64,000 nt of DNA, taken from positions 58,558 to 122,557 of the forward strand of contig JBNLVL010000026.1 in the NCBI GenBank assembly GCA_050618075.1. Reading direction: 5' to 3'. A model generated the notes under the pieces. That model saw only the letters and a program-made list of their open reading frames with translations, made no database searches and was not told the DNA's origin. Positions 5-36,630 of this stretch are shown here, in pieces; position 1 is the first letter of the stretch; each line of letters opens with the position of its first letter. The stretch is from Myxococcota bacterium (GTDB lineage: Bacteria; Myxococcota_A; UBA9160; UBA4427). A program made the position numbers and the translations under genes.

Positions 5-1540
5 ATGAACACGGCAACGAAGCTCGCCGGCATCGAGCTCGAGGACTGGCAGGGTCGACGGGAGACCCTGGGACATCTGTGGCGCGATCGAACGGTGGTG
101 CTGGTCTTCATCCGCCACTTCGGCTGACTGTTCTGCCGAGAGCAAGTCGCGCAGTTGCGCGACCACATCGACGCGATCCGCGAACGAGGGGCCGAGCTGG
201 TCATCGTCGGCAACGGCGCCCGGCACTTCGCGGCGGCCTTCCGAGAGGACTTCGAGCTCGACACGCCGCTGTTCGTCGACCCCGAGCTGCGGGCCTACCG
301 CGCCGCGGGGCTGCGCCGGGGCCGGGTCGAGATCCTGTCGCCGCGGGTTCCGCTCAATGCGTTCCGCGCCCTGCGCAAGGGGTTCGTGCAGCAGTCGGTC
401 GAAGGCGATCCGTGGCAGCTGGGAGGGGTCTTCGTGATCCGTCCCGGGGGCTCGCTCCGGTATCGCTACGTCAGCCGGGAGGCCGGCGATCATCCGCCCG
501 TGGCCGACGTGCTCGCGGCGCTGGGAGAGGAGACACCGGAGGTGGTGGAAGGGGAGAATCCGTCGGCTGCACAGGTGTGGGTCGGAGAGCTGCTGGGCCG
601 CCTGGTCGACCCCTTCATCGTGTCTTCCTTCGACCGCACCGGCTTCCGGATCCACTCGCTCACGTTCCAGCCGGACGACCTGGACGTCGACCTCTCGGGC
701 CGGCGCTGCCTGGTCACCGGCGCGAACTCGGGCATCGGCTTCGAGACGGCGCTGGGCCTGGCGGATCTCGGGGCGGAGGTGGTCCTTTTGTGCCGCAGCC
801 TCGAACGCGGCGAGGAGGCGGCGGCGCGCATCCGGGAGCAGACGGGCAACGCGCGGGTGACGGTCGAGCGGGTCGACCTGTCGGACCTCGACTCGGTCCG
901 GGAGGCCGCGGCGCGCCTGGCAGCGGGTCCCGTGGACGTGCTGGTCCACAACGCCGGCGTGCTCCCCGACCAGCGGGTCGAGACGGCGGACGGCCTGGAG
1001 CTGACCTTCGCGACCCACGTCGTCGGTCCGTTCCTGCTGACGCGGCTCCTCGAGGAGGCGCTCGGCCGGTCGGAGGACGCGCGTGTGGTCTGGGTCTCGT
1101 CGGGCGGCATGTACACCCGGAAGCTCGACCTCGCCGACCCCGGCTGGACCGATCGCGAGTACGACGGCGTCACGGCCTACGCCGAGACCAAGCGCGCCCA
1201 GGTCGTCCTGGCCGAGCTGTTCGCCGAAGCCCTGGGCGGTCGGGGGGTGGCCGTGTACGCCATGCATCCGGGCTGGGCCGACACCCCGGCCGTCGCCTCC
1301 TCGCTGCCGCGCTTCCATCGACTCACCCGCAGCATCCTGCGGACACCGGCCGAGGGGGCGGACACGGTCATCTGGCTGGCCGCGTGTTCGAGCCCGCGCC
1401 CCGAGACCGGCGCGTTCTTCTTCGACCGGCGGCCCCGCCGCACCCATCTCCTTCCCTGGACCCGGGAGTCGGAGGCCGAGCGCCGCAAGCTCTGGGCGCT
1501 GTGCGAGGAGCGGATCTCGGAGCCGGGCCATGGCCGCTGA
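5..1540 (+). CDS. Candidate selenoprotein: Prx-like2 (AhpC/TSA_2-type) thiol-redox domain with UxxC motif fused to a classical short-chain dehydrogenase/reductase; TGA 125-127 read as Sec
   Basis: ATG at 5 is in the same frame as track ORF 155..1540. The only interruption is TGA 125-127, which aligns with the first Cys of the paralog motif FLRHFGCIFCR (gene 2478..3020); here it reads FIRHFG-TGA-LFCR. The C-terminal half has SDR motifs VTGANSGIG and YAETK. The body 155..1540 is secure; read-through of the TGA is inferred. Confidence 0.7.
137..170 (+). promoter_or_regulatory. SECIS-like hairpin downstream of the in-frame UGA
   Basis: Perfect 7-bp stem GTCGCGC (146-152) / GCGCGAC (157-163) with 4-nt loop AGTT containing GU, starting 18 nt after the TGA. 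A possible 3-bp lower helix pairs 137-139 with 168-170. Confidence 0.5.
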
Positions 1541-2468
1541 GGCGGGCGCCGGCTCGCGGCGAGCCCACGGGCCGGCCCGCGCCCGTCGCTTCCGGCTCCC
1601 CGTCGGCCTGGCTCTCGCGGTCCTGTGCCTGGCCCCGCCGGCCCGGGGCGAGCTCCTGGCCCGGGCCGACGCGGCCTGGGCCGACCGGGCCCTGGGCGCC
1701 CGGGACGGTGTCGCGCTTCCAGGACCCGTCGGCGAGGCGATCGAGGCCTACGAAGCCGCGCGCGCCGCGCGCCCGCAGGCGCTCGAGCCCGAATGGAAGC
1801 TGCTGCGCGCCCTCCACTTCGCGGCGGCCTTCACGTCGCCGCAGGAGTCCGAGGCGGCCGAGCTCCATGCGCGGGCGACCCGGGTGGCGGAGCAGGCGAT
1901 GGAGCGTCTGGCCCGCCGGGTCGGCTCGGGTACGCGCCTGGACCGGCTCGACCCCGGGCAGGTCGAGGCCCGGATCGAGGGCACCGGGGTGACACCGCGC
2001 GATGTGGCCCGGCTCCACTTCTGGGCCGCGATCCACTGGGGGGCCTGGAGCCGGACGGTGGGTCTCGTCTCCGCGGTGCGCCGGGGCGTCGCCAGTCGGC
2101 TCCACCGCTACACCACCCTCGCCGTCTCCCTCGAGCCCGGCTATGAAGAAGGGGGCGCCCTGCGACTCCTGGGACGGCTCCACTCCGAGCTGCCGAGGGT
2201 CCCGTTCCTGACCGGCTGGGTCGACCGCGACCGGGCGATCCCGCTGCTCGCGAGGGCGCTCGAGCTGGCGCCGCAGCATCCGGGGAATCGACTGCTCATG
2301 GGACTGACCCTGCTGGACCTCGAGCCCGAGCGAAGCCGCGAAGCCTGGGAGCTGATCGGCGAGGTCGCGCGCGGGGAGCCGCGGCCCTCGATGCGGATCG
2401 AAGATCTCGCCCTGCGGCGCGCGGCCCGGGACCTGCTGGCCCAGGCGCCCGAGGCGGGCCGCTCGTGA
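1530..2468 (+). CDS. Secreted TPR-like / TatT-family-like helical repeat protein (hypothetical)
   Basis: ATG 1530 overlaps the upstream stop (ATGGCCGCTGA). The N-terminus RRFRLPVGLALAVLCLAPPARG looks like a signal peptide. The Ala/Leu-rich helical body (GGALRLLGRLHSELP...ARALELAP) resembles TatT/TPR proteins by recall. Confidence 0.7.
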   Translation: MAAEAGAGSRRAHGPARARRFRLPVGLALAVLCLAPPARGELLARADAAWADRALGARDGVALPGPVGEAIEAYEAARAARPQALEPEWKLLRALHFAAAFTSPQESEAAELHARATRVAEQAMERLARRVGSGTRLDRLDPGQVEARIEGTGVTPRDVARLHFWAAIHWGAWSRTVGLVSAVRRGVASRLHRYTTLAVSLEPGYEEGGALRLLGRLHSELPRVPFLTGWVDRDRAIPLLARALELAPQHPGNRLLMGLTLLDLEPERSREAWELIGEVARGEPRPSMRIEDLALRRAARDLLAQAPEAGRS

Positions 2469-2477
2469 GCAGGCACC

Positions 2478-3020
2478 TTGAAGCCCGGTGAGCGCATTGC
2501 CGACGACCTGCTGGCGCGACCCGTCAACGGTCTGAACCTGGTCCCCGGAACCCTGGGCGACCAGCTCGGCCAGGAGCTGAGCCTGCTGGTCTTCCTGCGG
2601 CACTTCGGCTGCATCTTCTGCCGCGAGACCCTGGCCGACATGCGCGCGGTGGCGGAGAGCGACGCTCGCTTCCCCAGGCCGCTCTTCTTCTTCCAGGGCA
2701 GCGCGACCGAGGGCAGGGCGTTCCTGCGCCGGTACTGGCCGTCCCTGCGCGCGGTCGCCGACCCCGAGGCCGAGATCTACGAGGCGTTCGGGATCGCCCG
2801 TGGCCACGTGGTCCAGATGCTCCGGCCGGCGGTGTGGTCGGCCCGGTCCCGGGCCGAGGCGAAGGGGCACCGCAACGGGGAGCGCAGCGGCGACATCTGG
2901 CGCATGCCCGGCGTCTACCTCGCCCGCGGACCCGAGATCGTGTGGGCCCACGAGTACCGGCACGTCGCCGACCACCCGGACTACGGCGTCATCTGCGAGC
3001 TGGCGGCCGAGGCGTCCTGA
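2478..3020 (+). CDS. Prx-like2 (AhpC/TSA_2-type) thiol-disulfide oxidoreductase, Cys version (CxxC)
   Basis: 180-aa ORF with motif VFLRHFGCIFCRE. TTG start lies 9 nt after the upstream stop. It is a paralog of the N-terminal domain of gene 5..1540. Confidence 0.85.
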   Translation: MKPGERIADDLLARPVNGLNLVPGTLGDQLGQELSLLVFLRHFGCIFCRETLADMRAVAESDARFPRPLFFFQGSATEGRAFLRRYWPSLRAVADPEAEIYEAFGIARGHVVQMLRPAVWSARSRAEAKGHRNGERSGDIWRMPGVYLARGPEIVWAHEYRHVADHPDYGVICELAAEAS

Positions 3021-6676: not shown

Positions 6677-7618
6677 GTGAGCGCCAGTGAGGAGAGGCCG
6701 GCCGGCCCGGACGCGGGGGGGCAGCCGGCCGGCGCCACGGTGCTCGTGACCGGAGGCAGCGGATTCCTCGGCTCGAGCCTGTGCCGGCGGCTGGCGCACG
6801 ACGGAGCCGACGTGCACGCCACCTCGCGCAGCGCCCGGACGGGCCCGCCCACCTGGTGGCAGCCCGATCTGGAGGACATCGAGGGCGTCCGCGCGCTCTT
6901 CTCGAGCATCCGCCCCGAGGTCGTCTACCACTTCGCGGGTCACGTCACCGCGGCGCCCGACCGCGACCTGGTCCTGCCCCTCTACCACAGTCTCCTCACC
7001 AGCACCGTCAACGTGATGCTGGCCGCCTGTGAGATCGGCTGTCGCAGGGTGGTGCTGGCCGGCTCCCTCACCGAGCCTGCGAACCCCGGCGACGTCCCGG
7101 CCTCCCCCTACGCCGCCGCCAAGTTCGCCTGCAACGGCTACGCGAAGATGTTCCACGCCATCTACGACCTGTCGGTGGTCATCACGCGTCCGTTCATGGC
7201 CTACGGACCCGGCCAGAACCCCGGAAAGGTCGTTCCCTACGTGGCGGCGGCGCTGTTGCGCGGAGAGACGCCCACGCTGTCGTCGGGGCGCCTGGAGTCC
7301 GACTGGATCTACATCGACGACGTGACCGACGGGCTCGTGCGCGCGGGCTTCGTCGGCGGAGTCGGCGGCCTGGAGATCGACCTGGGGACCGGGACGCTCG
7401 TCTCCCTGCGAACCGTGATCGAGAAGCTGGCGGCCCAGATCGGCGGGCCCGCGTCCCCGGAGTTCGGCTCCCGGACCGAGCGGCCGCTGGAGCGTTCCCG
7501 GGTCGCCCGGCTGGACGAGGCGACGCGCCTGCTCGGGGGCTGGCGCCCCCGGGTCGATCTGGACGAGGGCCTGCGGCGCACGATCGAGGCCCTGCGCGAG
7601 CAGGGGGCCGGCCGATGA
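6677..7618 (+). CDS. NAD-dependent epimerase/dehydratase (extended SDR)
   Basis: 313-aa ORF with VLVTGGSGFLGS Rossmann motif and YAAAK catalytic motif. GTG start. Confidence 0.9.
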   Translation: MSASEERPAGPDAGGQPAGATVLVTGGSGFLGSSLCRRLAHDGADVHATSRSARTGPPTWWQPDLEDIEGVRALFSSIRPEVVYHFAGHVTAAPDRDLVLPLYHSLLTSTVNVMLAACEIGCRRVVLAGSLTEPANPGDVPASPYAAAKFACNGYAKMFHAIYDLSVVITRPFMAYGPGQNPGKVVPYVAAALLRGETPTLSSGRLESDWIYIDDVTDGLVRAGFVGGVGGLEIDLGTGTLVSLRTVIEKLAAQIGGPASPEFGSRTERPLERSRVARLDEATRLLGGWRPRVDLDEGLRRTIEALREQGAGR

Positions 7619-9705
7619 GCTGGCGGCTCGCGGGGCTCGCCGCGATCGCGGCGCTCGTGGTCGGCGCGGGCGTGCTGGTGCTCTCGGTGCCGCCCATCCA
7701 GTGGCGCGCCCAGCTGATCGTCCTCCAGGCCCGGGGCGAGATCTACGACCTCTCGTGGTCCGAGCTGCTGCGCATGATCGTGCCGCGAAGCGGCTACTAC
7801 CTCGAAGACCTGGTGGAGACCCGGAATCCGTTCGGCACCATCGAGAACCCCTACGAGACGCCCGAGGACGTCGAGGCCGGCGAGGCCGTGTTCCGCACCC
7901 ACTGCGCGAACTGTCACGGCACGGCCGGCACCGGCGGAGTGGGGCCGGCCCTCGACAGCGCCGACCTCAAGCACGGCGACACCGACTGGTGGCTCTACCG
8001 GGCGATGACCCGCGGCATCCCCGGCACGGCCATGGTGGGCCGCGACCTCGACGACCGCGAGGCCTGGCAGGTGGTCGCGTACATCCGCTCCATCGAGAAG
8101 AAGGACCCGAGCCTCGCCGAGCTCGAGGGGCCCGAGGTCGAGGTCGCGCCCGTGGGCTACGACCGTCTGCTCGCCGGCCGCGCCGAGGCCCGCAGCTGGC
8201 TCACCTACTCCGGCGACTACGACGGCAAGCGCTACAGCGACCTCGCGGAGATCGACGCCGCCAACGCCGGCGACCTGAAGCTGCTCTGGATGCACCAGAC
8301 CGACGCGGTCGACGAGTACCTCGAGACGTCGCCCATCGTGAACGACGGCGTCATGTACATCACCGACTCGCCGGGCGGTGTCCACGCCCTCGACGCCGCG
8401 ACCGGGGTCGTGCTGTGGTCGTTCAACCGGCCCGTGCCCGAGAGGCTCTCCCTGTGCTGCGGCCACGTGAACCGCGGCGTGGCCATTCTCGGCGACACCG
8501 TCTACTGGGCCACCATCGACTCCCACCTGCTGGCCCTCGACGCGAGGACCGGCGAGGAGCGCTGGCAGGTGGAGGTGGCCGAGCACGAGGCCGGCTACAC
8601 GATCACCTCGGCGCCCCTGGTGGTGAAGGACCTGGTGCTGATCGGCGTCTCCGGGGGCGAGTACGGCATCCGGGGCCACCTGGACGCCTACCGCGCCTCC
8701 ACCGGCGAGAGGGTCTGGCGCTTCTACACCATTCCGGCGCCCGGTGAGCCCGGAAGCGAGACCTGGAGCGGAGACTCCTGGAAGACCGGCGGCGCCGGTG
8801 CGTGGCTCACGGGCTCGTTCGACCCCGAGCTGAACCTCCTCTACTGGGGGACCGGCAACCCGGGCCCCCTGTACCACGGCGACACCCGACTCGGAGACAA
8901 CCTCTACGCCAACAGCGTGGTGGCGCTCGACGTCGACACCGGGGAGATGCGCTGGTACTTCCAGTTCACCCCCCACGATCTCCACGACTGGGCCGCGAAC
9001 CAGATTCCCGTGCTGGTGGACCGGCCCTGGGAAGGCGAGGAGCGGTCGCTCCTGCTGACGGCCAACCGCAACGGCTTCTTCTACGCCCTCGACCGCGAGA
9101 CCGGCGAGTACCTGATGGCCGAGCCGTTCGTGAAGCAGAACTGGGCGGTGGAGATCGACGCCGACGGTCGGCCGGTCCTCGACGACAACGCCATCCCCAC
9201 GCCGGAGGGGACGATCACCTGGCCCTCGCCCCACGGCGGGACCAACTGGCAGTCGCCCGCCTACAGTCCGCGCACGGACCTCTTCTACGTGCCGGCCCTC
9301 GACGGCGGTCGCATCGTCTACAAGCAGGGCGACACGCCGCGCTACGAGCGGGGCGAGTTCTACATCGGAAGCATGCACCAGATGATCTCGCGCAATCACC
9401 CGCTGGTGGCCAAGCTGCGGGCCATCGACCCGGACACCGGCGAGGTCGTCTGGTCCTACGACAATCCGCCGCGGGACACCCTGTGGCGGACCGGCGGCGT
9501 GCTGGCGACCGCGGGAGACATCGTGGTCGGCGGGGACTTCACGTCGCTCTACGCCCTCGACGCCCGCGACGGCCGGGAGCTCTGGCGCATGAACGTCGGG
9601 GGCTACGTGAACGCGGCGCCCATCACCTACGAGGTGGAGGGGCGCCAGCAGATCACGGTCGCGGCCGGCCGCTCGATCCTCACCTTCGGCCTGCCCACCC
9701 GCTAG
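7615..9705 (+). CDS. PQQ-dependent dehydrogenase (quinoprotein beta-propeller) with N-terminal TM anchor and cytochrome c domain
   Basis: ATGA overlap with the epimerase stop. An N-terminal hydrophobic helix is followed by a CANCH haem-binding motif. The vicinal Cys pair LSLCCGHVNRG and repeated W/propeller motifs are typical of PQQ alcohol/glucose dehydrogenases. Confidence 0.9.
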   Translation: MSWRLAGLAAIAALVVGAGVLVLSVPPIQWRAQLIVLQARGEIYDLSWSELLRMIVPRSGYYLEDLVETRNPFGTIENPYETPEDVEAGEAVFRTHCANCHGTAGTGGVGPALDSADLKHGDTDWWLYRAMTRGIPGTAMVGRDLDDREAWQVVAYIRSIEKKDPSLAELEGPEVEVAPVGYDRLLAGRAEARSWLTYSGDYDGKRYSDLAEIDAANAGDLKLLWMHQTDAVDEYLETSPIVNDGVMYITDSPGGVHALDAATGVVLWSFNRPVPERLSLCCGHVNRGVAILGDTVYWATIDSHLLALDARTGEERWQVEVAEHEAGYTITSAPLVVKDLVLIGVSGGEYGIRGHLDAYRASTGERVWRFYTIPAPGEPGSETWSGDSWKTGGAGAWLTGSFDPELNLLYWGTGNPGPLYHGDTRLGDNLYANSVVALDVDTGEMRWYFQFTPHDLHDWAANQIPVLVDRPWEGEERSLLLTANRNGFFYALDRETGEYLMAEPFVKQNWAVEIDADGRPVLDDNAIPTPEGTITWPSPHGGTNWQSPAYSPRTDLFYVPALDGGRIVYKQGDTPRYERGEFYIGSMHQMISRNHPLVAKLRAIDPDTGEVVWSYDNPPRDTLWRTGGVLATAGDIVVGGDFTSLYALDARDGRELWRMNVGGYVNAAPITYEVEGRQQITVAAGRSILTFGLPTR

Positions 9706-9874: not shown

Positions 9875-12049
9875 TCAGCTCGGGGGTTGGGGAGGTTCGT
9901 TCCAGGAGAGGTCGTGGGAGGCGATGGGGAGGGTGCGGACCCGGTGGCCCGTGGCGCGGGCGATGGCGTTGCACAGGGCCGGGGCCAGGGGCGGCAGGCC
10001 GGGCTCGCCGATGCCACCCCACTTGTCGCCTCCCGAGAGCGCCAGGTGGGTCTCCATCACCGGCGTCTCGGCGAGCGTGAGGACCCGGTACGAGTCGAAG
10101 TTGCCCTCGCGGACGCGACCGTCCTCGAGGGTCATCCGGCCGTAGAGGGCGGCGGTCAGGCCGAAGACGATGGCGCCCTCGATCTGCTCCTCGATGGTGA
10201 GCGGATTCACCGCGTGGCCGCAGTCCAGCGCCGAGACCACCCGCTCGACCCGGAGCCGGCCTTCCCGGGAGACCTGCACCTCGACCACCTGACCGACGAT
10301 GGTCCCCATGGCCTCGTGGACGGCCATGCCCTGGGCCCGGCCCTCGCCGAGGGGCCGGCCCCAGCCCGCGCGCTCGGCCAGCACGTCGAGCACCCGGACG
10401 AAGTCGGGCCGGTGGGCCAGGAGCGAGCGGCGCAGCGCCAGGGGATCGCGCTCCGCGGCCAGGGCGACCTCGTCCAGGAACGACTCGAGGGCGAAGGCGT
10501 TCTGGGAGTGTCCAACCGAGCGCCAGATGCCCACCGGCACCGGGGTGCGGCGCATGCGGTGCTCGAGCCGCTTCGACGGGATGGCGTGGGGCAGCTCCGC
10601 GAGCCCCATGATGGAGGTCTTGTCGAGGCCGTCGACCAGGTGCTTGGGGCTGTCGGCGAAGATGGGGTGGGCGACCGAGCGGCCATGGATGGACGTGGGC
10701 GCACCCGCGTCGTCCAGGGTGGCTCGGAAGCGGAAGGCCGCCGTCGGGCGGTAGAAGCCCTGGCGGGTGTCCTCCTCCCGGCTCCAGACGAGCTGCACCG
10801 GGACGCCCGCCGCCATGGCGACGCGCACGGCGTCGGCCACGGGGCGGTCGTCGCTGCGGCGGCCGAAGGCGCCTCCCACCAGCTGGCCGTGGACGTGGAC
10901 CTCCTCGGGGTCGCGGCCGGTCAGGCGCGCCGCCGTGCGCAGGGCGCTCTCCTGGTTCTGGGTGCCCACCCAGACGTCCACGCGGTCGTCGGCGATGGCG
11001 ACCGTGCAGTTCTGCGGCTCCATGCACGCGTGGGCCAGGTACGGCACCTGGTATTCGGCCTCGACCGCCCGGGCCGGGTCGTCGGGCGCGGCGGGACCTT
11101 CTTCGAGGAACACCTGCCCCGGCTCGTCGAGCGCGGCGCGGAAGGCGTCGTCGATCTGGTCGCTGGAGAGCCGCTCGACGCCTCGGGTGTCCCACTCGAC
11201 GGGCAGGGCGTCGAGGGCGGTGCGCGCCCGCCAGGTCGAGTCGGCCACCACCGCCACCGCGTCGTCCAGGGCGACCACGGCGACGACGCCCGGGCGACCG
11301 CGCACCGCATCGGCGTCGTGGGACGCCAGCCGGCCCCCGAAGACCGGGCAGTGGAGGATGGCCCCGTAGCGCATGCCCGGGATGCGGACGTCGATCGCGT
11401 AGCGGGCGGAGCCGTCCACCTTCGAAGGCACGTCCAGGCGTGGGGTGGGCGTGCCGAGGAGGGTGAAGGCCTCGGGGGCCTTCAGGGTCAGGGGCTCGTC
11501 GCCCAGCTCGACCCGTGCCGCCTCGGCCGCCAGCTCTCCATAGGAGAGGGAGCGCCCGCCTCCGCGCTCGGAGATGCGACCCATGCGGGCTTCGCAGGCG
11601 GAGACCGGCACCTGCCAGCGCGCCGCGGCCGCGCGGCGCAGGCGCTCGCGGGCGTTGGCGCCGGCTTCCTGGAGGTAGTGGCGCGAGTAGCGCACCGCTC
11701 CGCTGCCGCCGGTGTTGAAGCTCCGGTAGGTCCCGCCGTTGCGAATGCTGCGATTCACGTCCGCCACCTCGAACGTGACCCGCTGCCAGTCGCACTCGAG
11801 CTCCTCGGCCACGATCATGGGCAGCGAGGTGAGCACGCCCTGGCCCAGCTCGGAGCGGGCGACCCGGACGGTGATGGTGTCGTCGGGGTCGATGGTGAGC
11901 CAGGCGTTCACCTCCCCCTCGATGGCGAGATCGGGCGCGAAGAGGTCGTCCTCCTTGCGGCCGCAGGCCGGAAGGTGGAAGGCCAGCACGAGTCCGCCGG
12001 TCGCTCCGACCGTGGCCTCGAGGAAGCGGCGCCGGGTGAGGGGGGCCAC
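9875..12049 (-). CDS. Molybdopterin-binding oxidoreductase large subunit (IorB / aldehyde oxidase family), Tat-exported
   Basis: 724-aa ORF with GTG start. Twin-arginine N-terminus TRRRFLEATVGATGG. The body is typical of isoquinoline 1-oxidoreductase beta / xanthine dehydrogenase family subunits. Confidence 0.9.
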   Translation of the reverse strand: MAPLTRRRFLEATVGATGGLVLAFHLPACGRKEDDLFAPDLAIEGEVNAWLTIDPDDTITVRVARSELGQGVLTSLPMIVAEELECDWQRVTFEVADVNRSIRNGGTYRSFNTGGSGAVRYSRHYLQEAGANARERLRRAAAARWQVPVSACEARMGRISERGGGRSLSYGELAAEAARVELGDEPLTLKAPEAFTLLGTPTPRLDVPSKVDGSARYAIDVRIPGMRYGAILHCPVFGGRLASHDADAVRGRPGVVAVVALDDAVAVVADSTWRARTALDALPVEWDTRGVERLSSDQIDDAFRAALDEPGQVFLEEGPAAPDDPARAVEAEYQVPYLAHACMEPQNCTVAIADDRVDVWVGTQNQESALRTAARLTGRDPEEVHVHGQLVGGAFGRRSDDRPVADAVRVAMAAGVPVQLVWSREEDTRQGFYRPTAAFRFRATLDDAGAPTSIHGRSVAHPIFADSPKHLVDGLDKTSIMGLAELPHAIPSKRLEHRMRRTPVPVGIWRSVGHSQNAFALESFLDEVALAAERDPLALRRSLLAHRPDFVRVLDVLAERAGWGRPLGEGRAQGMAVHEAMGTIVGQVVEVQVSREGRLRVERVVSALDCGHAVNPLTIEEQIEGAIVFGLTAALYGRMTLEDGRVREGNFDSYRVLTLAETPVMETHLALSGGDKWGGIGEPGLPPLAPALCNAIARATGHRVRTLPIASHDLSWNEPPQPPS

Positions 12050-12052
12050 GGC

Positions 12053-12526
12053 CTAGGGCTCCGGCTCGGGGTCCGCCGCGCCGACCGCCCGGTGGATGGC
12101 CAGCCGGATCCTCGCGTAGGTCCCGCAGCGGCAGAGGTTGGTCATGGCGCGGTCGATGTCGGCGTCGCTGGGGCTCGGCACGTCGGCGAGCAGGGCCACG
12201 GCGGCCATGATCTGCCCCGACTGGCAATAGCCGCACTGGGGCACGTCCTCGGCGATCCAGGCCTGCTGCACCGGGTGGAGGCGCTCGCCCTCGGCCAGCC
12301 CCTCGATGGTGGTCACCTCCTGATCGCCCACGGCGGACACCGGGTAGACGCACGAGCGCACGAGCTTTCCGCCCACGTGCACGCTGCAGGCGCCGCAGCG
12401 CGCGATGCCGCAGCCGTACTTCGTGCCCGTGAGGTCGAGGTGGTCGCGCAGGGCCCACAGGAGCGGGGTCTCGGGTTCGACGTCGAGACTGTGGACACGT
12501 CCGTTGACGGTGAGCTGGATGGTCAT
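12053..12526 (-). CDS. (2Fe-2S)-binding small subunit of molybdenum hydroxylase (IorA-like)
   Basis: Trimmed to ATG 12526 (MTIQLTVNG...). Motifs [13 protein letters not shown] and CGYCQSGQ...CRCGTY. The stop lies 3 nt before the large-subunit start. Confidence 0.9.
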
Positions 12527-12716
12527 GCCGTGGTGCGCGGAGGTTCCCGTTTCGGCGAAGATAGCAGCTCGCACCACCGGGGCCGGCGGGCGCGCGCGGC
12601 GATTGACGGTCCGATGTGCATTCGCGAGTGTGCCCAGGCGGCGGTGGCAGCCGCGGGGCGACGGGCGCCTGCGGGCGGAGCGTCGCGGAGGGCGAGACCA
12701 TGAGCGGCGGTTTCGG

Positions 12717-13955
12717 GTGAAGGGCGCTTCCGGAGCGGGGCGGCGGTCGCGCGGTCGGACCGCGCTCTTCGTCGTGCTGGCCGCGTTGCTCTCGATCGCG
12801 ATCGTCGAGGTGTTCGCGCGGGTGGTCGTCCCGCCGCAGTGGCTCCACGACACCTACCCCGACGAGGACGCTCTGCTGGCCGAGCACCCCCAGCGCGGCT
12901 ACGGACTGCGCCGCGACCTCGTGCGCAGCTGGGCCCAGCACGACGGCGACTTCGAGGTCGAGGTGCGGCTCAACTCCGACGGGCAGCGCGACGCCGAGGC
13001 GGCCCTGGCGCGGCGGGCGGATCTCCGGATCCTGGCGGCCGGCGACTCGTTCACGTTCGGGATCGGGGTCGAGGGCGACGAGCGCTGGAGCGAGGTCCTG
13101 GAGGCGAGCCTCGCCCGGCGCTTCGCGGGGCAGGCCACGGTCTCCGTCTACAACGCCGGGGTGCCCGGCTACAGCGCCACCCAGATCCGACAGGTCATCG
13201 AGGAGTGGGTGCCCCGGCTCGAGCCCCGGCTCGTCGTCTTCGGGGCCTACGCCAACAGCTACTGGCGCGTGGAGACGCCGTACGAGCTGCTGGGCGGCAC
13301 CCTCGTCTCCTCCCGGGTGTCGAGCTACGTGCACGTGAGCCCCGAGGGCGACCTCATCGCCTCGGCCTTCGAGCCCGGCTGGCTGCGCCGTCTCGACGTC
13401 GGCCTGAAGCGCTTCCTGCACGTTGGAGCCCACCTGCTCTCGAGCGTGAACCGGTTCCGGCACTGGCCGCGCATGTCGGCGCGGCCGCTGGACGAGCCCT
13501 CGGTGCGGCGCGACTACGTCGCCGCGTCCCGCGAGATCGCGGCGGCCAACCGCTTCGTCGTGGAGCACGGCGGGCGCATGCTGCTGCTGGCGATCAACGG
13601 CCAGCAGAGAGACGGCTCGTTCCTCCCCATCGAGTCGGTCTACAACGACGTGCTGCGCCAGACCGCCGAGCGCGAGGGCATCCTCTTCGTCGAGTCGCTG
13701 CCCGAGCTCGCCCGGCTCGCCGATGGGCGCCGGATCTACCGCTTCGAGCACGACATCCACTGGACGCCCGCGGCCCACGAGGCGGCGGCGCGCCTGCTCG
13801 AGTCGCGGCTGGACCAGGCGGGGCTGCTGCCCGACGCGGGGCGCGGCGGGGATGCGGCCGGAGCCGGACGATCGAGCACGGGGCCGGGTCGCCCGGTGGA
13901 GGCGCGCAAGGGGCCGGGGCGCTTCGCCACGGCAGAAGCCGCCGCAAACCACTGA
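12717..13955 (+). CDS. Membrane-anchored SGNH/GDSL-family hydrolase
   Basis: GTG 12717 is chosen as the first in-frame start before the TM helix [22 protein letters not shown] block [11 protein letters not shown] and C-terminal DIHW..AH block. The exact start is uncertain. Confidence 0.75.
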
Positions 13956-14273
13956 GTCCCGCGCGTCCCCGAGCTCTCTCCCGGACCTCTCCCGGACGGC
14001 CTCACTTTGGGCGATCCCATTCTGGAAAAGTCCGCGGAATCGGTAGATCATGTGTCACCGGACTCCCGTCTCACGCCACCTACGTGCCGGGATGCTCCGG
14101 CCGAGAGTCCTCGTCGATCACCGACGACCGCGGTCGCCTGCACCGCGGGCTCCGCTCTCGGCGGAAACGAGCTGACCATCCGCAGGGATGTTGCCTTGGT
14201 TGCCCTTGTTGCCCCGGAGGGAAGATTGCGGACCCTGTCTCCTCACTGTGAGCGCGCGCCCGGACGTCGAGCC

Positions 14274-17200
14274 GTGAGCCGACGAGCGCTCCGGAGCGTG
14301 CTGCCGGCCGTGCTGGCGCTGCTCTGTCTCGGGGCCGGCCCGGCCCGGGCCCAGCTCGATCCCCACGTGGGTGGCCAGTGGAGCGGGATCCTGCCCTGGC
14401 CCCACATCGCGGTCTCCATGGCCAGCCTGCCCGACGGCCGCATCCTGACCTTCTCCTCCAACGAGCGGGACAGCTTCCCGGTGGACGTCGAGTTCACCTA
14501 CGCGGCGGTCTGGGACCCGGAGACCGGCGTCCACTCCGAGATTCCGCACCCCTCCCACGACATGTTCTGCGCCTCGCTGGTGACGCTCGAAGACGGCGAA
14601 GTGTTCGTGACCGGCGGCCGCAACAAGGGGCTGAGCCCGTTCACCAGCATCTTCGACTTCCGCACGGACTCCTGGATTCCCATGGAGGACATGAACCGGG
14701 GCCGCTGGTACCCGACCAGCATCGCGCTCCCCAACGGCCAGGTGTTCGTGGCCGTGGGCACGGGCGGTCAGCAGTATCCGGAGATCTGGACGCCCGGGTC
14801 GGGCTGGCAGCTGCTCACGGGAATCGACCTCACCGACCCCATCCTGCAGTACGGCTCGATCAACGGCGGCGATCAGTGGCCGCTGATGCACCTCGACCTC
14901 GACGGCAACATCCTCCACTACGGCGCCACGCCGATCATGCACTCCCTGGACCTCACCGGCCTGGGCAGCATCACGACGATCGGCCCCCACAACGCGCCCT
15001 GGCACGCCAAGGAAGCCGTCGCAGTGATGTACGACGAGGCGAAGCTGCTCGTCGCCGGCGGCGCCACCGCGATGACCGACGTCACGAGCGTGGCCAACGC
15101 GATGACCATCGACATCAGCGGGCCGGCGCCGGTCATCACCCAGATCGCGCCCATGAACTCGCCCCGGCAGTACCACAACGAGGTCATCCTTCCCGACGGC
15201 CGGGTGATCGTGATCGGCGGCAACACCAACGGCGAGAAGTTCGTGGACACCAGCGCGGTCCTCGCCCCCGAGGTCTGGGACCCGGACACCGGCGTCTGGA
15301 CGCTGTGGAACCCCCAGCAGGTGCCGCGGGTGTACCACTCGACGGCCATCCTCATGACCGACGGCCGGATCATCTCGGCGGGCGGCGGTCTCCGGAACCT
15401 CGGCAGCGAGGGCGACCATCTCGACGCCGAGATCTTCTCGCCGCCCTATCTCTTCGACGCACTCGACCAGCCCGCGGTGCGGCCCGTCATCACCGACGCC
15501 CCGGGTCTGCGGCGGATCGGGACGTCGTTCGGGGTCGAGGCCACGGCCGGGCTCTCGCGCTTCACGCTGATCAAGATGTCGGCCACGACCCACACGCAGA
15601 ACACCGACCTCCGGTTCCTGGAGGTGCCGTTCAGCGAGGACGCCCCCGGCGAGTACACCCTCACCCTCCACTCCGACGAGAACGTCCTCACCCCGGGCTA
15701 CTGGATGCTGTGGGCGCTCGACGCCCAGGACGTCCCCAGCGAGGCCCACGTCATCCAGATCGTGACCACCGGCCGGCCTCGGGCGCCGATTCCGGCCGAT
15801 CCGCGCAACCGCGTGGGAGACGTGGTCTCGCTCCAGATCGAGGCGGCGGACCCCGACGGCGATCCCTTGAACTTCGGCGCCAGCGGTCTGCCCGACGGCC
15901 TCGCGATCGATCCGGCCACCGGGCTCGTCACCGGCGTTCCCACCACGCCCGGCATCTTCAACGTCGACGTGCTGGTGGACGACGGCGTCGACTCGGTGGC
16001 GGTCGCCTTCCGCTGGTTCGTGGCGACCCCGCAGGTCCACAGCGAGATCGGCTCGGTCACGGTCGCCCAGGCGGATTCCGACGAGTGGCACGCGGTCTCG
16101 TTCGGCGACATCTTCGTCGACCCCATCGTGGTGATGGGGCCGCCCACGCGCAGCGACTCCGCGCCGGTGACGGTCCGCGTGCGCGACGTCACGCCGACGG
16201 GCTTCGAGTTCCAGATCGACGAGTGGGACTACCTGGACGGCGCCCACGGCTCGGAGACCCTGGCCTGGATGGCCGTCGACGCCGGCGCCCACGTGCTCGA
16301 CACCGGCGAGGCGCTCGTGGCCGGCGTCACCGAGTTCGTCGATCACGACTGGAAGACCCAGGACCTCCCGGCGGGCGCCTTCTCGGTCACGCCCCTGGTG
16401 CTGGCCCAGATCGTGACGTCCGGGCATCCCGAGGCGGCGGTCGACCGGCTCCAGAACGTCGGATCCGGCTCCTTCGAGGTCAAGCTCCAGGAGCAGGAGA
16501 AGGAAGACGGGCTGATCGGCGCGGAGAAGATCCACTGGATCGCCATCGAGCCCGGAGTGGACTCCGGAGGCGTGGTGGCCGACCTCACCGGGCCGGCCGT
16601 CGACCACGATCCCTACACCCTCGACTGGACGCCCGACTTCTCCGGAGCGCCCCAGCTGCTGGCGACCGCCCAGACCTACCTCAGCTACAACCCGATGGCC
16701 ATGCGCATGATGTCGACCAGTGCCGCGAGCACCGACATCTTCTGCGAGGAGGAGACCTCCAAGGACACGGAGCTCGCGCACTCCCAGGAGGACATCGGCT
16801 ACCTGGCTGCGGACCCGACGGTGTCCGGCCTCTCGCTCTCGCCGCTGTTCAACGACCCGCCGACCATCGACGACCCGGGCGACCAGACCAGCGAGCAGGG
16901 CACGGCGATCGCGCCGCTGATGCTGGTGGTGAACGACCTCGACGGCGATCCGGTCACGTTCGGCGCGGCGGGGCTGCCCGACGGCCTCGCCATCGATCCG
17001 CTCACCGGCGTCATCAGCGGTACGCCGACCACGCCGGGCGTCTCGACGGTGACCGTGACCGTGACCGACCAGCCCGGCGCGAGCGCCGACGCCGTGTTCG
17101 ACTGGACCATCAACGAGGAGCTGAGCCTCGCCCAGACCGCGGCGCCGCCCCAGGCGGCCGGCGACTCCGTCTCGCTGTCGGTCGTCCCGAGCTGGCCGGG

Positions 17201-19355
17201 CGCCTTCGAGTACGTGTGGGACTTCGGAGACGGCACGCCGCCCACCGATCCGTCGCCCCTGGCCTCGGCGACCCACACCTACGCCGGTCCCGGACGCTGG
17301 GTGGTGACGGTGACCGTGACCGACCCGTCCTCCGGCGCCAGCGACGTGCTGCAGTTCGAGCAGGTCATCCATCCGGTGGCGGCGGGCACGCCGCCCGCGC
17401 AGTCGAGCTCGATCGTCTACGAGGCCGCGGCGGACCGCGTCTGGACCGTGAACCCCGACAACGACAGCGTGAGCGTCTTCGACGCGACCACCGACCTGAA
17501 GGTCGCCGAGGTTCCGCTGGGTGACGAGCCGTCCAGCCTGGCCATCGCCAGCGACGGCTTCGTCTGGGTGGTCGAGAAGGGGGCGGCCCGCATCAGCCTC
17601 ATCGATCCGGTGGGGCCGACCCTCGCGCGCCACATCGAGCTGCCGCGGGCCTCGAGGCCCGACTCCCTGGTGTTCTCCCACGACGGCCTGCTGGCCTACG
17701 TGTCGCTCGAGGCCACGGGCGAGCTGCTGGAGATCGACGCCCTGGGCGAGGTCGTCCTGGCCTCGGTCGACGTGGGCCCGAACCCCAGGGCCCTGGCCCT
17801 CACGCCCGACGGAGCCACCCTGCTGGTCTCGCGATTCGTGACGCTCCCGCTTCCGGGCGAGTCGACCGACAGCCCTGCGACCGAGGACCTGGGCCAGCCG
17901 GTGGGCGGCGAGGTGATTCCGGTGGACACCGCGACCCTGGTGGCCGATCCGTCGATCGTCCTGGAGCACAGCTACGCCGCGATCACGCAGTCCTCGGGCC
18001 CCGGCGTGCCGAACTACGTGGGTGTGGCCGCCATCGCGCCCGACGGCGCCAGCGCCTGGGTGCCCTCGAAGCAGGACAACATCCTGGGCGGGGCCGCGCG
18101 CAGCGGAATCGATCTCGGCCACGATTCCACGGTCCGGGCCGTGTCGTCCCACGTCGACCTCACCACGCTCACGGAGAGCCTGGTCGACCGGGTCGATCAC
18201 GACGACGCCAGCGTGGCCAACTCGGCGCGCTTCGACGCCACGGGCGCCTACGTCTTCACCACCCTCGAGAGCACCCGCGCGGTGGCCGTCATCGACCCGT
18301 TCGGGAAGGCCGAGCTCGGCCGCTTCGCCGCCGGACGCGCGCCGCGGGGCACCGCGCTCTCGCCCGACGGGCGCACGCTCTACGTCCACAACTTCATGGA
18401 CCGCACGGTCACGGTCCACGACCTGTCCCAGCTGCTCGACTACTCCACGGTGGTCGTGCCCACCGTGGCGACCTGGTCGCTGGTCGCCAGCGAGTCCCTG
18501 GCCGCCGACGTGTTCGCCGGCAAGCAGTTCTTCTACGACGCCTTCGATCCGCGCCTGGCGCTCCAGGGCTACATGTCCTGCGCCTCCTGCCACAACGGCG
18601 GGGGCCACGACGGACGCACCTGGGACTTCACGCAGTTCGGCGAGGGGCTGCGCAACACGATCGACCTGACCGGCCACGGCCAGGGCCACGGTCCGCTGCA
18701 CTGGACGGCCAACTTCGACGAGGTGCAGGACTTCGAGGGGCAGATCCGCATGTTCGCCGGCGGGACCGGACTCATGGCGGACGTGGACTTCTACACCGGC
18801 ACGCGCTCCGATCCGCTGGGCGACCCGAAGGCGGGCATCAGCGCGGACCTGGATGCGCTCGCGGCCTACGTCCAGTCGCTGACCTCGGCCTACGACAGCC
18901 CGTATCGCATGTCCGACGGGTCGCTCACCGCCGAGGCCCAGGAGGGCCGGACGCTCTTCCTCTTCGAAGGCTGCGCCGACTGCCACAGCGGGACGGCCTT
19001 CAGCGACAGCGGGACGCTCGCGATCCACGACGTCGGCACCTTGACGCCGGCCAGCGGCCCCGTGGTCGGGCTCGACACGCCGACCCTGCGCGGACTGTGG
19101 TACGGCGCTCCCTATCTCCACGACGGGTCCGCGGCGACCCTCGAGGAGGCCGTGGCCGCCCACTCCGGCGTGGCCCTCGACGCCTATCAGCTGGGCCTGC
19201 TGGCCGCCTATCTCGAGCAGATCGACGACGACGAGACCCAGGCGCCCAGCGTGGGAGCACCGTCCAAGTGCGGTCTCGGCTCGGAGCTGGCGATCGCGCT
19301 GCCCGGACTGCTGTGGCTCCGCCGCCGCCGCCAACGCGCAAGGGCCCGCGGCTAG
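14274..19355 (+). CDS. 1693-aa secreted multidomain protein: galactose/glyoxal-oxidase-like Kelch + DUF1929-like, cadherin-like repeats, lectin-like repeats, PKD, YVTN beta-propeller, di-haem cytochrome c peroxidase-like domain, C-terminal sorting tag
   Basis: GTG 14274 precedes the signal peptide SRRALRSVLPAVLALLCLGAGPARAQ. RFTLIKMSATTHTQNTDLRFLEV (DUF1929-like). Two DPDGDP..GLPDGLAIDP.TG..G.PTTPG repeats. WDFGDGT (PKD). CASCH (18579-18593) and CADCH (18972-18986). Tail is KCGLGSELAIALPGLLWLRRRRQRARARG. Confidence 0.9.
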   Translation: MSRRALRSVLPAVLALLCLGAGPARAQLDPHVGGQWSGILPWPHIAVSMASLPDGRILTFSSNERDSFPVDVEFTYAAVWDPETGVHSEIPHPSHDMFCASLVTLEDGEVFVTGGRNKGLSPFTSIFDFRTDSWIPMEDMNRGRWYPTSIALPNGQVFVAVGTGGQQYPEIWTPGSGWQLLTGIDLTDPILQYGSINGGDQWPLMHLDLDGNILHYGATPIMHSLDLTGLGSITTIGPHNAPWHAKEAVAVMYDEAKLLVAGGATAMTDVTSVANAMTIDISGPAPVITQIAPMNSPRQYHNEVILPDGRVIVIGGNTNGEKFVDTSAVLAPEVWDPDTGVWTLWNPQQVPRVYHSTAILMTDGRIISAGGGLRNLGSEGDHLDAEIFSPPYLFDALDQPAVRPVITDAPGLRRIGTSFGVEATAGLSRFTLIKMSATTHTQNTDLRFLEVPFSEDAPGEYTLTLHSDENVLTPGYWMLWALDAQDVPSEAHVIQIVTTGRPRAPIPADPRNRVGDVVSLQIEAADPDGDPLNFGASGLPDGLAIDPATGLVTGVPTTPGIFNVDVLVDDGVDSVAVAFRWFVATPQVHSEIGSVTVAQADSDEWHAVSFGDIFVDPIVVMGPPTRSDSAPVTVRVRDVTPTGFEFQIDEWDYLDGAHGSETLAWMAVDAGAHVLDTGEALVAGVTEFVDHDWKTQDLPAGAFSVTPLVLAQIVTSGHPEAAVDRLQNVGSGSFEVKLQEQEKEDGLIGAEKIHWIAIEPGVDSGGVVADLTGPAVDHDPYTLDWTPDFSGAPQLLATAQTYLSYNPMAMRMMSTSAASTDIFCEEETSKDTELAHSQEDIGYLAADPTVSGLSLSPLFNDPPTIDDPGDQTSEQGTAIAPLMLVVNDLDGDPVTFGAAGLPDGLAIDPLTGVISGTPTTPGVSTVTVTVTDQPGASADAVFDWTINEELSLAQTAAPPQAAGDSVSLSVVPSWPGAFEYVWDFGDGTPPTDPSPLASATHTYAGPGRWVVTVTVTDPSSGASDVLQFEQVIHPVAAGTPPAQSSSIVYEAAADRVWTVNPDNDSVSVFDATTDLKVAEVPLGDEPSSLAIASDGFVWVVEKGAARISLIDPVGPTLARHIELPRASRPDSLVFSHDGLLAYVSLEATGELLEIDALGEVVLASVDVGPNPRALALTPDGATLLVSRFVTLPLPGESTDSPATEDLGQPVGGEVIPVDTATLVADPSIVLEHSYAAITQSSGPGVPNYVGVAAIAPDGASAWVPSKQDNILGGAARSGIDLGHDSTVRAVSSHVDLTTLTESLVDRVDHDDASVANSARFDATGAYVFTTLESTRAVAVIDPFGKAELGRFAAGRAPRGTALSPDGRTLYVHNFMDRTVTVHDLSQLLDYSTVVVPTVATWSLVASESLAADVFAGKQFFYDAFDPRLALQGYMSCASCHNGGGHDGRTWDFTQFGEGLRNTIDLTGHGQGHGPLHWTANFDEVQDFEGQIRMFAGGTGLMADVDFYTGTRSDPLGDPKAGISADLDALAAYVQSLTSAYDSPYRMSDGSLTAEAQEGRTLFLFEGCADCHSGTAFSDSGTLAIHDVGTLTPASGPVVGLDTPTLRGLWYGAPYLHDGSAATLEEAVAAHSGVALDAYQLGLLAAYLEQIDDDETQAPSVGAPSKCGLGSELAIALPGLLWLRRRRQRARARG

Positions 19356-36553: not shown

Positions 36554-36630
<77 letters not shown>

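Follow-up and report, generated by a model that had tools for sequence, protein, structure and literature searches.

A candidate selenoprotein combining a SelL-related redox domain with a short-chain dehydrogenase/reductase in a Myxococcota bacterium

A 2026 inventory of prokaryotic selenoproteins lists 119 families and subfamilies, and many of them are thioredoxin-fold proteins with a UxxC motif, in which U stands for selenocysteine (Sec) (PMC13188914). Its entries include a 'Prx-like thiol:disulfide oxidoreductase' (PF00578, UxxC or UxxU; Prx, peroxiredoxin), a 'Redoxin family protein' (PF08534, UxxC) and a 'Peroxiredoxin-like family protein' (cd02970, UxxS) (PMC13188914). Here, we analyzed a stretch of 64,000 nucleotides (the window) from a Myxococcota bacterium (GenBank assembly GCA_050618075.1, contig JBNLVL010000026.1, positions 58,558 to 122,557 of the forward strand) and found that positions 5-1540 very probably encode one 511-residue selenoprotein, in which the UGA codon at 125-127 is read as Sec. 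The predicted protein consists of an N-terminal thioredoxin-fold domain and a C-terminal short-chain dehydrogenase/reductase (SDR) domain. Two further groups of proteins are relevant for comparison. SelL carries two Sec residues in a UxxU motif, which form a diselenide, and some non-mammalian SelU proteins carry Sec at the motif position. SelL was reportedly described by Shchedrina et al. in 2007 and is said to be a Prx-like thioredoxin-fold selenoprotein that occurs in aquatic animals and in some marine bacteria.

With the Prx-like families of the inventory, the locus shares the thioredoxin fold and the predicted use of Sec for the first Cys of a CxxC-type center. It also shares with them a Sec insertion sequence (SECIS) inside the coding region just downstream of the UGA, abundant Cys homologues and a prediction that is based on Sec/Cys pairs.

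Reading frame and conservation of the UGA codon

The window opens with the letters cccc, which are followed by an ATG, and the frame that runs on the + strand from this ATG (position 5) to the stop codon TGA at 1538-1540 comprises 511 codons including the putative Sec codon. The first-pass annotation of this DNA had claimed that ATG-5 and the open reading frame (ORF) 155..1540 share one frame with the TGA at 125-127 as the sole break, and inspection of the sequence confirmed this. The codons after the TGA are CTG TTC TGC and read-through would yield the sequence ...VFIRHFG-U-LFC-REQVAQLRD... In this product Sec would be residue 41 and would occupy the first position of a U-L-F-C redox motif, an assignment suggested by the conservation of the TGA and by the existence of Cys homologues. 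The UxxC motif is completed by its resolving Cys, which is encoded by the TGC at 134-136, and Cys (TGC or TGT) is present at this position in 27/27 aligned orthologues.

The mechanical ORF list splits the locus into a 40-codon piece (5..127) and ORF 155..1540, which starts with the Leu codon TTG at 155-157. This codon lies within the loop and the 3' arm of a putative SECIS hairpin and appears to be a false start chosen by gene callers. ORF 155..1540 corresponds to GenBank protein P0001, which comprises 461 aa, is encoded on a contig of 323,950 bp and is named 'MAG: SDR family NAD(P)-dependent oxidoreductase [Myxococcota bacterium]' (MAG, metagenome-assembled genome). Thus, gene callers do start at TTG-155 and lose the active site, as had been anticipated. 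The SDR fusion and the position of TTG-155 inside the SECIS loop are points that the earlier annotation did not contain. When database matches to the read-through protein were inspected, the best 120 were 72-78% identical, about 455-475 aa long, covered 88-92% of it and began at residue 42 or later. Like the GenBank protein, 119 of these 120 entries are devoid of the first 41-50 residues and with them of the catalytic Sec. The same proportion (119/120) was obtained when we searched for relatives of P0241, a full-length Cys orthologue. In an alignment of 28 of these matches, 13 begin with M/V-FCREQVAQLRD at residue 42, which is the codon after the TGA, and the remaining sequences begin between residues 49 and 68, mostly at residue 51. 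Well over a hundred relatives appear to be mis-annotated in this way, and inferences drawn from such entries miss the redox center.

To characterize the interrupting codon, orthologue DNA was drawn from one genome collection and one metagenome collection. Besides the window, 35 related loci were found to carry a TGA at the corresponding column (31 fused, one unfused with the SDR gene first, three standalone), and neither TAA nor TAG was observed at the Sec column in any of these 35 loci. The TGA-bearing loci are L001, L004, L055-L062, L064-L075, L077-L081, L085, L097, L118, L127, L138, L140, L141, L143 and L144, and some of them (L004, L075, L077, L078, L080) are only about 49-59% identical. 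One fused orthologue carries Cys (TGC) at the column; this is L084, which equals the full-length 509-aa protein P0241 on L142. The nearest relatives of P0241 (77-81% identity) are truncated calls with the same start as the Sec forms, and for one of them, P0243, the TGA was confirmed (L140). Because these nearest relatives are Sec-type calls and because a leftover stem is present downstream of the codon, the fused Cys form seems to have replaced Sec by Cys recently.

Nine standalone homologues (48-56% identity) read RHFGC[LIV][FL]C, and one of them has been named 'SelL-related redox protein [Myxococcota bacterium]' by NCBI. The window itself encodes a standalone Cys paralogue of this SelL-related type (2478..3020, + strand; NF040769, 146.5 bits), which is 29% identical to the N-terminal domain and reads VFLRHFG-C-IFCRET. 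Its Cys (residue 45) aligns with the TGA, as the first-pass annotation had stated, but it is preceded by 44 residues and not by 45. Since the 35 loci carry TGA, and the fused orthologue P0241, the nine standalone homologues and the window paralogue carry Cys, the alternation of UGA and Cys that had been suspected for this column was recovered.

Two of the standalone Sec forms (L138:9875-10414 and L143:5878-6417) have each been split by gene calling into an ORF of 40-41 aa and a downstream ORF of 137-138 aa. In L138, this split pair comes after an aldehyde dehydrogenase gene, and in L143, the truncated product is named 'peroxiredoxin-like family protein' in the NCBI record. The window was also scanned for in-frame TGA codons that are flanked by coding sequence with a high G+C content at third codon positions. 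This crude test yielded 19 candidates and, besides TGA 125-127, none of them carried a redox motif.

The sequence upstream of the TGA behaves like coding sequence. In the 33 codons before the TGA, 26 orthologues contained no in-frame stop, whereas reading in the two alternative frames gave two and eight stops, respectively. Pairwise divergence at codon positions 1, 2 and 3 was 0.276, 0.244 and 0.469 upstream of the TGA and 0.195, 0.163 and 0.497 downstream of it, and fully conserved upstream residues such as Leu -19 and Val -9 are each encoded by four codons. These comparisons indicate that the upstream codons are translated. The matches to Pfam AhpC-TSA (residues 9-128) and NCBIfam NF040769 (residues 9-172) both cross the TGA, and because of this, the 40 upstream codons are part of the domain and not a leader. 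These data agree with the earlier suggestion that the 40 codons represent the genuine N-terminus. An unconserved or frameshifted upstream region in the orthologues, which had been named as evidence to the contrary, was not observed: the region is conserved, free of stops and diverges in a coding-like manner.

Two alternative explanations for the interrupted frame were considered at this point. First, the window is a single MAG-derived sequence, and the TGA might reflect a sequencing or assembly error or a recent pseudogene. However, a separate assembly of run SRR30568139 (L137; Logan) has the identical TGA, 35 independent contigs from other samples share it, and there is purifying selection on both sides of the codon. 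This explanation is effectively refuted and we assign it a negligible probability. Second, the TGA might be a true stop, and the locus would then encode a 40-residue peptide and a separate truncated protein starting from TTG-155 or nearby, with the hairpin serving another role such as translational coupling. This is the output of every gene caller, but such an arrangement would interrupt the thioredoxin fold after its first strand and before its first helix and would remove the active-site residue. Moreover, the stop is always TGA in the 35 loci, the frame does not shift across it, and full-length Cys forms exist. In addition, the codon that follows the TGA is CTG or CTC and not a start codon in many orthologues, and the 'start' TTG sits inside a stable stem-loop. 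Considering these data, termination at the TGA is very improbable, and we continue with Sec decoding as the preferred reading.

The hairpin downstream of the UGA codon

The putative bacterial SECIS is the hairpin GUCGCGC-AGUU-GCGCGAC at 146-163 (+ strand), which consists of a 5' arm (146-152), an AGUU loop (153-156) and a 3' arm (157-163). It starts 18 nt after the UGA and its loop starts 25 nt after the UGA. The 7-bp hairpin and its 18-nt distance had been described correctly in the first-pass annotation, but the loop had been placed about 29 nt away. The published bSECIS model involves a loop of 3-9 nt, an upper stem of 4-16 bp and a minimum free energy of no more than -7.5 kcal/mol (PMC13188914). 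It further involves a G as the first or second base of the loop, after which G or U is the usual base, and a UGA-loop distance of 16-37 nt (PMC13188914). The hairpin agrees with this model in all respects (4-nt AGUU loop, 7 bp, 25 nt, -12.1 kcal/mol), and its loop carries G at position 2, which is followed by U. The idea of a SECIS-like hairpin within the bacterial range was strengthened by this agreement and by the covariation of the stem. A search of positions 1-400 against Rfam (E <= 10) yielded no family match, one chance small RNA aside.

The hairpin is encoded by codons +7 to +12 (V-A-Q-L-R-D) and the synonymous sites of these codons are frozen, with GTC in 26/26, GCG in 24/25, CAG in 27/27, TTG in 27/27 and CGC in 23/25 sequences. 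It can be seen that the Leu of the hairpin is always TTG in the 27 Sec orthologues; the other Leu columns are mostly CTC or CTG. The rarity of TTG-155 among the Leu codons is apparently explained by the RNA structure, which imposes TTG at this site. Third-position divergence amounts to 0.038 in the hairpin, compared with 0.344 in the six preceding codons and 0.497 in the sequence that follows.

Covariation was quantified in 35 sequences. Here, we found that 99.2% of the stem cells are paired and that four of the seven pairs show compensatory double changes. G-C is replaced by A-U in L065 and L078, and the standalone form L138, the stem of which reads GUGGUGC/GCACCGC, shows compensatory changes from C-G to G-C and from C-G to U-A. 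Eleven further stem changes across the 35 sequences are one-sided (wobble). Such values of pairing and covariation were reached neither in 500 column shuffles nor with any slid register, and the AGUU loop was invariant in 35/35 sequences. Of 200 shuffled versions of the 48-nt stretch that starts at the UGA, 198 fold less well than the native sequence (z = -2.5).

When we inspected the Cys forms, a different picture was obtained. In the fused Cys orthologue (L084:1548-1595 = L142), six of the seven stem pairs are kept, the closing pair is lost and the loop has become AGCU via a Leu codon change from TTG to CTG. This stem looks like a decaying SECIS after a Sec-to-Cys change. For the paralogue 2478..3020, no hairpin was found after the TGC (z = +0.53), and the standalone Cys homologues vary the EQVAQLR peptide. 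These sequences indicate that the Cys forms have lost the SECIS signal.

A second hairpin predicted by ViennaRNA just after the UGA (135-150 region) had 85.7% paired cells, showed no compensatory change and had two pairs broken in 9 and 14 of 28 sequences; it was rejected as part of the element. L118 (768-815), the most divergent Sec member, carries a different hairpin, GGGC-GGUC-GCCC, which is located 17 nt after the UGA and has a folding energy of about -7.4 kcal/mol. Its GGUC loop presumably recalls the loop of E. coli fdhF. In L118, a glutathione peroxidase gene is located just upstream of the Sec gene.

According to the proposed mechanism, the UGA at 125-127 is read as Sec and the hairpin at 146-163, which lies inside the coding sequence, would act as SECIS. 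SelB with Sec-tRNA(Sec) would be recruited through the invariant AGUU loop and the 7-bp stem and would be positioned at the UGA. Sec would then be inserted and translation would run on to 1540. We infer SelB recruitment and Sec insertion from the evolution of the sequences.

A third explanation has to be weighed here, according to which the UGA is read through without Sec. In this case, the UGA would be decoded as Trp, Cys, Arg or Gly by a suppressor tRNA or a near-cognate one, and the hairpin would be a general read-through stimulator instead of a SelB-binding SECIS. The inserted amino acid is indistinguishable by sequence analysis alone, and the Sec machinery was not found in the available sequence (64-kb window and fetched loci), which is compatible with this explanation. 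However, the site corresponds to the catalytic first Cys of a CxxC motif, where only Cys and Sec keep the chemistry, and insertion of Cys would give no reason for the use of TGA over TGC in 35 lineages. Moreover, the hairpin fits the SelB-type bSECIS in loop content and spacing, and it combines an invariant loop with a covarying stem. Finally, 20 of the 32 confident ORFs of the window end in UGA. Because of this, UGA is an ordinary stop elsewhere and is not reassigned in this organism. Taken together, these data make read-through without Sec improbable and leave Sec insertion as the preferred reading.

Several observations weigh against Sec decoding. We searched the window and about 0.85 Mb of fetched loci for the Sec machinery, using tblastn with E. 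coli SelA, SelB and SelD as well as ARAGORN and Rfam for tRNA-Sec, and found no selA, selB, selD or tRNA-Sec in these sequences; with SelB, only weak GTPase-type matches were obtained. For a genome of several megabases, the negative outcome in the 64-kb window is uninformative. Deltaproteobacteria in the old sense are rich in selenoproteins, a statement that is not specific to this MAG (PMC5029168). Furthermore, the 71-nt stretch 120-190 is not exceptional in folding (z = -1.08), and the stem is short and GC-rich in a genome with 72% GC. Only 4 nt precede ATG-5 in the window, which limits the reading of a ribosome-binding site and of the true start in this organism, and the other retrieved copy (L137) begins inside the gene. 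The start at ATG-5 is supported by the orthologues, which begin at the equivalent Met or Val and several of which have an in-frame stop a few codons upstream.

Domain composition and gene neighborhoods

To classify the N-terminal domain (residues 9-172, positions 29..520, + strand), profile matches were computed with Cys in place of the TGA. NF040769 'SelL-related redox protein' gave 151.3 bits (cut-off 120; profile positions 5-172 of 173), PF13911 (AhpC-TSA_2) matched residues 50-158 with 59.9 bits (cut-off 27), and PF00578 (AhpC-TSA) matched residues 9-128 with 39.4 bits. The best solved relative is PRXL2B (prostamide/prostaglandin F synthase; PDB 9us9, E = 3.1e-12, residues 18-174), the sequence RRFG-C-VVC-R of which aligns with RHFG-U-LFC-R. 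Here, Sec corresponds to the first Cys of the CVVC motif and the Cys at 134-136 to the second one; in the deposited double mutant 9usa, both Cys positions of the motif are occupied by Ser, which shows that the depositors took an interest in these two residues. The earlier assignment as a thioredoxin-fold Prx-like protein of the SelU/PRXL2 superfamily is consistent with these matches. As a stand-in for the window protein, the natural Cys orthologue P0241 was modelled with AlphaFold (predicted local distance difference test 88.5, predicted template modelling score 0.79). In the model, residue 41 is located between strand 30-36 and helix 42-53, which is the classical redox position of the thioredoxin fold.

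The PxxxT/SxxC peroxidatic motif of canonical peroxiredoxins is absent, and the sequence before and at the redox residue reads VFIRHFG-U-LFC. Because this motif is absent, the domain is classified as Prx-like2/SelU/SelL-type according to its sequence and not as a true peroxiredoxin. It is not SelL proper either, because the second motif position is invariably Cys in the aligned orthologues (27/27). Since the closest solved relative is a prostamide/prostaglandin F synthase, reduction of an O-O or S-S bond is, by analogy, the most likely activity of the N-terminal domain, and its substrate is plausibly a lipid hydroperoxide or endoperoxide. Mechanistically, Sec41 would attack the oxidized substrate, and Cys44 would resolve the intermediate, giving a selenenylsulfide. 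Reduction of the latter would fall to thioredoxin, glutathione or a comparable system.

The C-terminal part (residues ~229-452, positions 689..1360, + strand) represents a classical, DHRS12-like SDR domain, as suggested by the adh_short match (Pfam; residues 235-432, 94.7 bits), by sequence motifs and by Foldseek. The SDR motifs TGANSGIG (238-245), HNAG (315-318), SS (365-366) and YAETK (392-396, with Y392 and K396) are invariant in alignment A1. When the P0241 model was compared with the PDB by Foldseek, only SDR matches were obtained, LPOR included, and there was no two-domain match. The C-terminal domain is apparently an active NAD(P)H-dependent SDR, and many orthologues have been named 'SDR family member 12' by JGI.

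In some relatives, the two domains are encoded separately. L004, a Myxococcales MAG, has the SDR gene first, followed by a separate Sec gene, and L144 carries a standalone Sec gene that diverges from an SDR gene, the product of which is 66% identical to the SDR domain of the window. The standalone Sec forms L138 and L143 have no adjacent SDR gene. Because relatives encode the domains as separate adjacent genes, the two domains probably act in one pathway. Hypothetically, the SDR domain would spend NAD(P)H on the lipid-derived substrate of the N-terminal domain or on its product. As a point against the proposed explanation, no SDR is known to recycle a selenenylsulfide.

To obtain information on the possible biological role, we inspected the gene neighborhoods. 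A photolyase gene is located directly downstream in L001, L055, L062, L063, L071, L076, L082 and L083. A MerR/B12-binding regulator with CarH as best NCBIfam match was found in L057, L059, L061, L062, L071, L080, L081, L097 and L144; this CarH-like regulator is divergent and precedes the selenoprotein gene. Genes of the DUF1722 and NmrA/DUF2867 families recur near the selenoprotein gene of relatives, and a glutathione S-transferase gene is present upstream in L070, L084, L140 and L142. The regions L140:8859-12050 (Sec) and L142:8995-12318 (the only fused Cys form) are syntenic and share a divergent glutathione S-transferase gene and a downstream glutathione peroxidase gene. In L144:199-10296, the Sec gene is located near genes for the SDR, an amine-oxidase-type protein, DUF1365, a cyclopropane fatty acid (CFA)-synthase-like protein, a CarH-like regulator and a photolyase, and actinobacterial standalone SDR homologues have the same neighbors. 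The amine-oxidase-type, DUF1365 and CFA-synthase-like genes of L144 resemble the furan-fatty-acid genes ufaO, ufaM and ufaD. The repeated presence of a photolyase and a divergent CarH-like regulator in relatives suggests a light-controlled operon.

In the window, the selenoprotein gene is followed by a gene for a 312-aa protein (1530..2468, + strand), which is also found downstream in L001, L064, L065, L076, L083 and L111 and which lies between the selenoprotein gene and the photolyase gene in L001, L076 and L083. This neighbor has no Pfam match, and its match to BstC (sterol transporter outer-membrane protein) is weak, with 43 bits against a cut-off of 350. Further neighbors are the Cys paralogue, an FkbM methyltransferase and a GT2 glycosyltransferase. 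Near the gene, the window contains no photolyase gene, no CarH/LitR-like gene and no match to the glutathione S-transferase or glutathione peroxidase genes of the relatives, and this tells against a stress-related role in this organism. Because the window is devoid of these genes, the stress-regulon context derives from the relatives only.

In Pseudomonas, a cluster of photolyase, SDR, flavin adenine dinucleotide (FAD)-dependent oxidoreductase and ufaM genes is light-inducible under LitR (PMC9758184). The singlet-oxygen sigma-E regulon of R. sphaeroides includes a related operon, the products of which synthesize furan fatty acids (PMC3546557, PMC7380195). Since the relatives adjoin genes for photolyase, CarH/LitR-type regulator, glutathione S-transferase, glutathione peroxidase and furan-fatty-acid-type proteins, a role in the repair or detoxification of photo-oxidative (singlet-oxygen) lipid damage is conceivable, and we propose it tentatively. 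RSP1087 was considered as the SDR of the sigma-E singlet-oxygen operon, but the papers give RSP1091-RSP1087 as being of unknown function and RSP1087 as a protein of 245 aa; we retain it as a lead only. Deletion of RSP1087 did not change furan fatty acid synthesis (PMC7380195).

A more far-reaching scenario, which we consider rather unlikely in its entirety, is that the locus represents the first example of an unrecorded, widespread selenoenzyme family, attributed so far to Myxococcota-type MAGs, in which a Sec endoperoxide/hydroperoxide reductase, as a bacterial counterpart of prostaglandin F synthase, is fused to the SDR of a conserved, light-inducible regulon for photolyase and furan fatty acids. 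The two domains would act sequentially on membrane lipids damaged by singlet oxygen, for instance by reducing endoperoxide or dioxo-ene products of oxidized furan or unsaturated fatty acids. If this scenario was true, it would provide a first biochemical role for the orphan light-regulon SDR and would define a selenium requirement in bacterial photo-oxidative defense. Apart from this scenario, the locus offers two leads: some bacteria may use selenium against light-driven lipid oxidation, and the fusion may point to the function of the conserved light-regulon SDR. For the explanation as a whole, which comprises the selenoprotein fusion, its decoding and the roles of its domains, we consider the account given here the best available and hold it with considerable confidence.

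Other features of the window were also recorded. At 7033-9705 (+ strand), there is a pyrroloquinoline quinone (PQQ)-dependent dehydrogenase with a cytochrome c domain, which is adjoined at 9875-12853 (- strand) by the large subunit of a molybdopterin hydroxylase together with a [2Fe-2S] subunit. An unusual 1799-aa ORF (13956-19355, + strand) combines galactose-oxidase/kelch, He_PIG, PKD, beta-propeller and di-haem cytochrome c peroxidase-like segments. At 17103-17184 (- strand), ARAGORN calls an 82-nt tRNA-Pro(GGG); the Rfam search at gathering threshold reports only the tRNAs at 36554 and 39738.

Comparison with known systems

Neither a PF13911/NF040769 entry nor an SDR fusion is present among the 119 families of the inventory (PMC13188914). 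Similarly, no selenoprotein of the PF13911/NF040769 type and none that is fused to an SDR appears in the deep-Sep, BSepDB, GOS and Olavius papers. The nearest inventory entry by name, cd02970, is listed with UxxS, and the protein described here carries UxxC. We take cd02970 to be the PRX_like2 model. In the literature searched, the UxxC motif, the SDR-fusion architecture and the genomic context of the locus appear to be unrecorded.

When compared with SelL, the N-terminal domain (151 bits) and the Cys paralogue (146 bits) both score above the NF040769 cut-off of 120. In contrast to SelL, the second motif position is Cys (TGC/TGT) in all 27 aligned sequences, a UxxU motif was not encountered among them, and the domain is fused to an SDR, which is not known for SelL. 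SelU/PRXL2 proteins (PRXL2B, 9us9) share significant similarity and a motif that aligns residue for residue. However, these proteins are eukaryotic, carry the SECIS in the 3'-untranslated region when Sec is present, are not linked to an SDR and are only about 25-30% identical.

As far as the SDR domain is concerned, a similar context has been described for Pseudomonas mendocina PME6630, which is located beside phrB, a gene for an FAD-dependent oxidoreductase and ufaM (PMC9758184), and human DHRS12 is comparable as well. Relatives of the window SDR adjoin photolyase, amine-oxidase-type FAD enzyme, DUF1365, CFA-synthase-like and CarH/LitR-type genes. In contrast, PME6630 and RSP1087 are not fused to a selenoprotein domain, and they are likened to the window SDR by gene context and not as demonstrated orthologues.

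With the SECIS of E. coli fdhF, the putative element shares the position of the stem-loop inside the ORF after the UGA, a small apical loop in which U comes after a G, and a fixed distance. It differs in its sequence, its plain 7-bp stem, its 4-nt loop, the lack of a bulged U and the lack of an Rfam match. Taken together, this kind of selenoprotein is well known, and new thioredoxin-fold selenoproteins are found regularly; the locus described here would add a family to the selenoproteome, and its clean and strongly covarying SECIS could be used for a search model.

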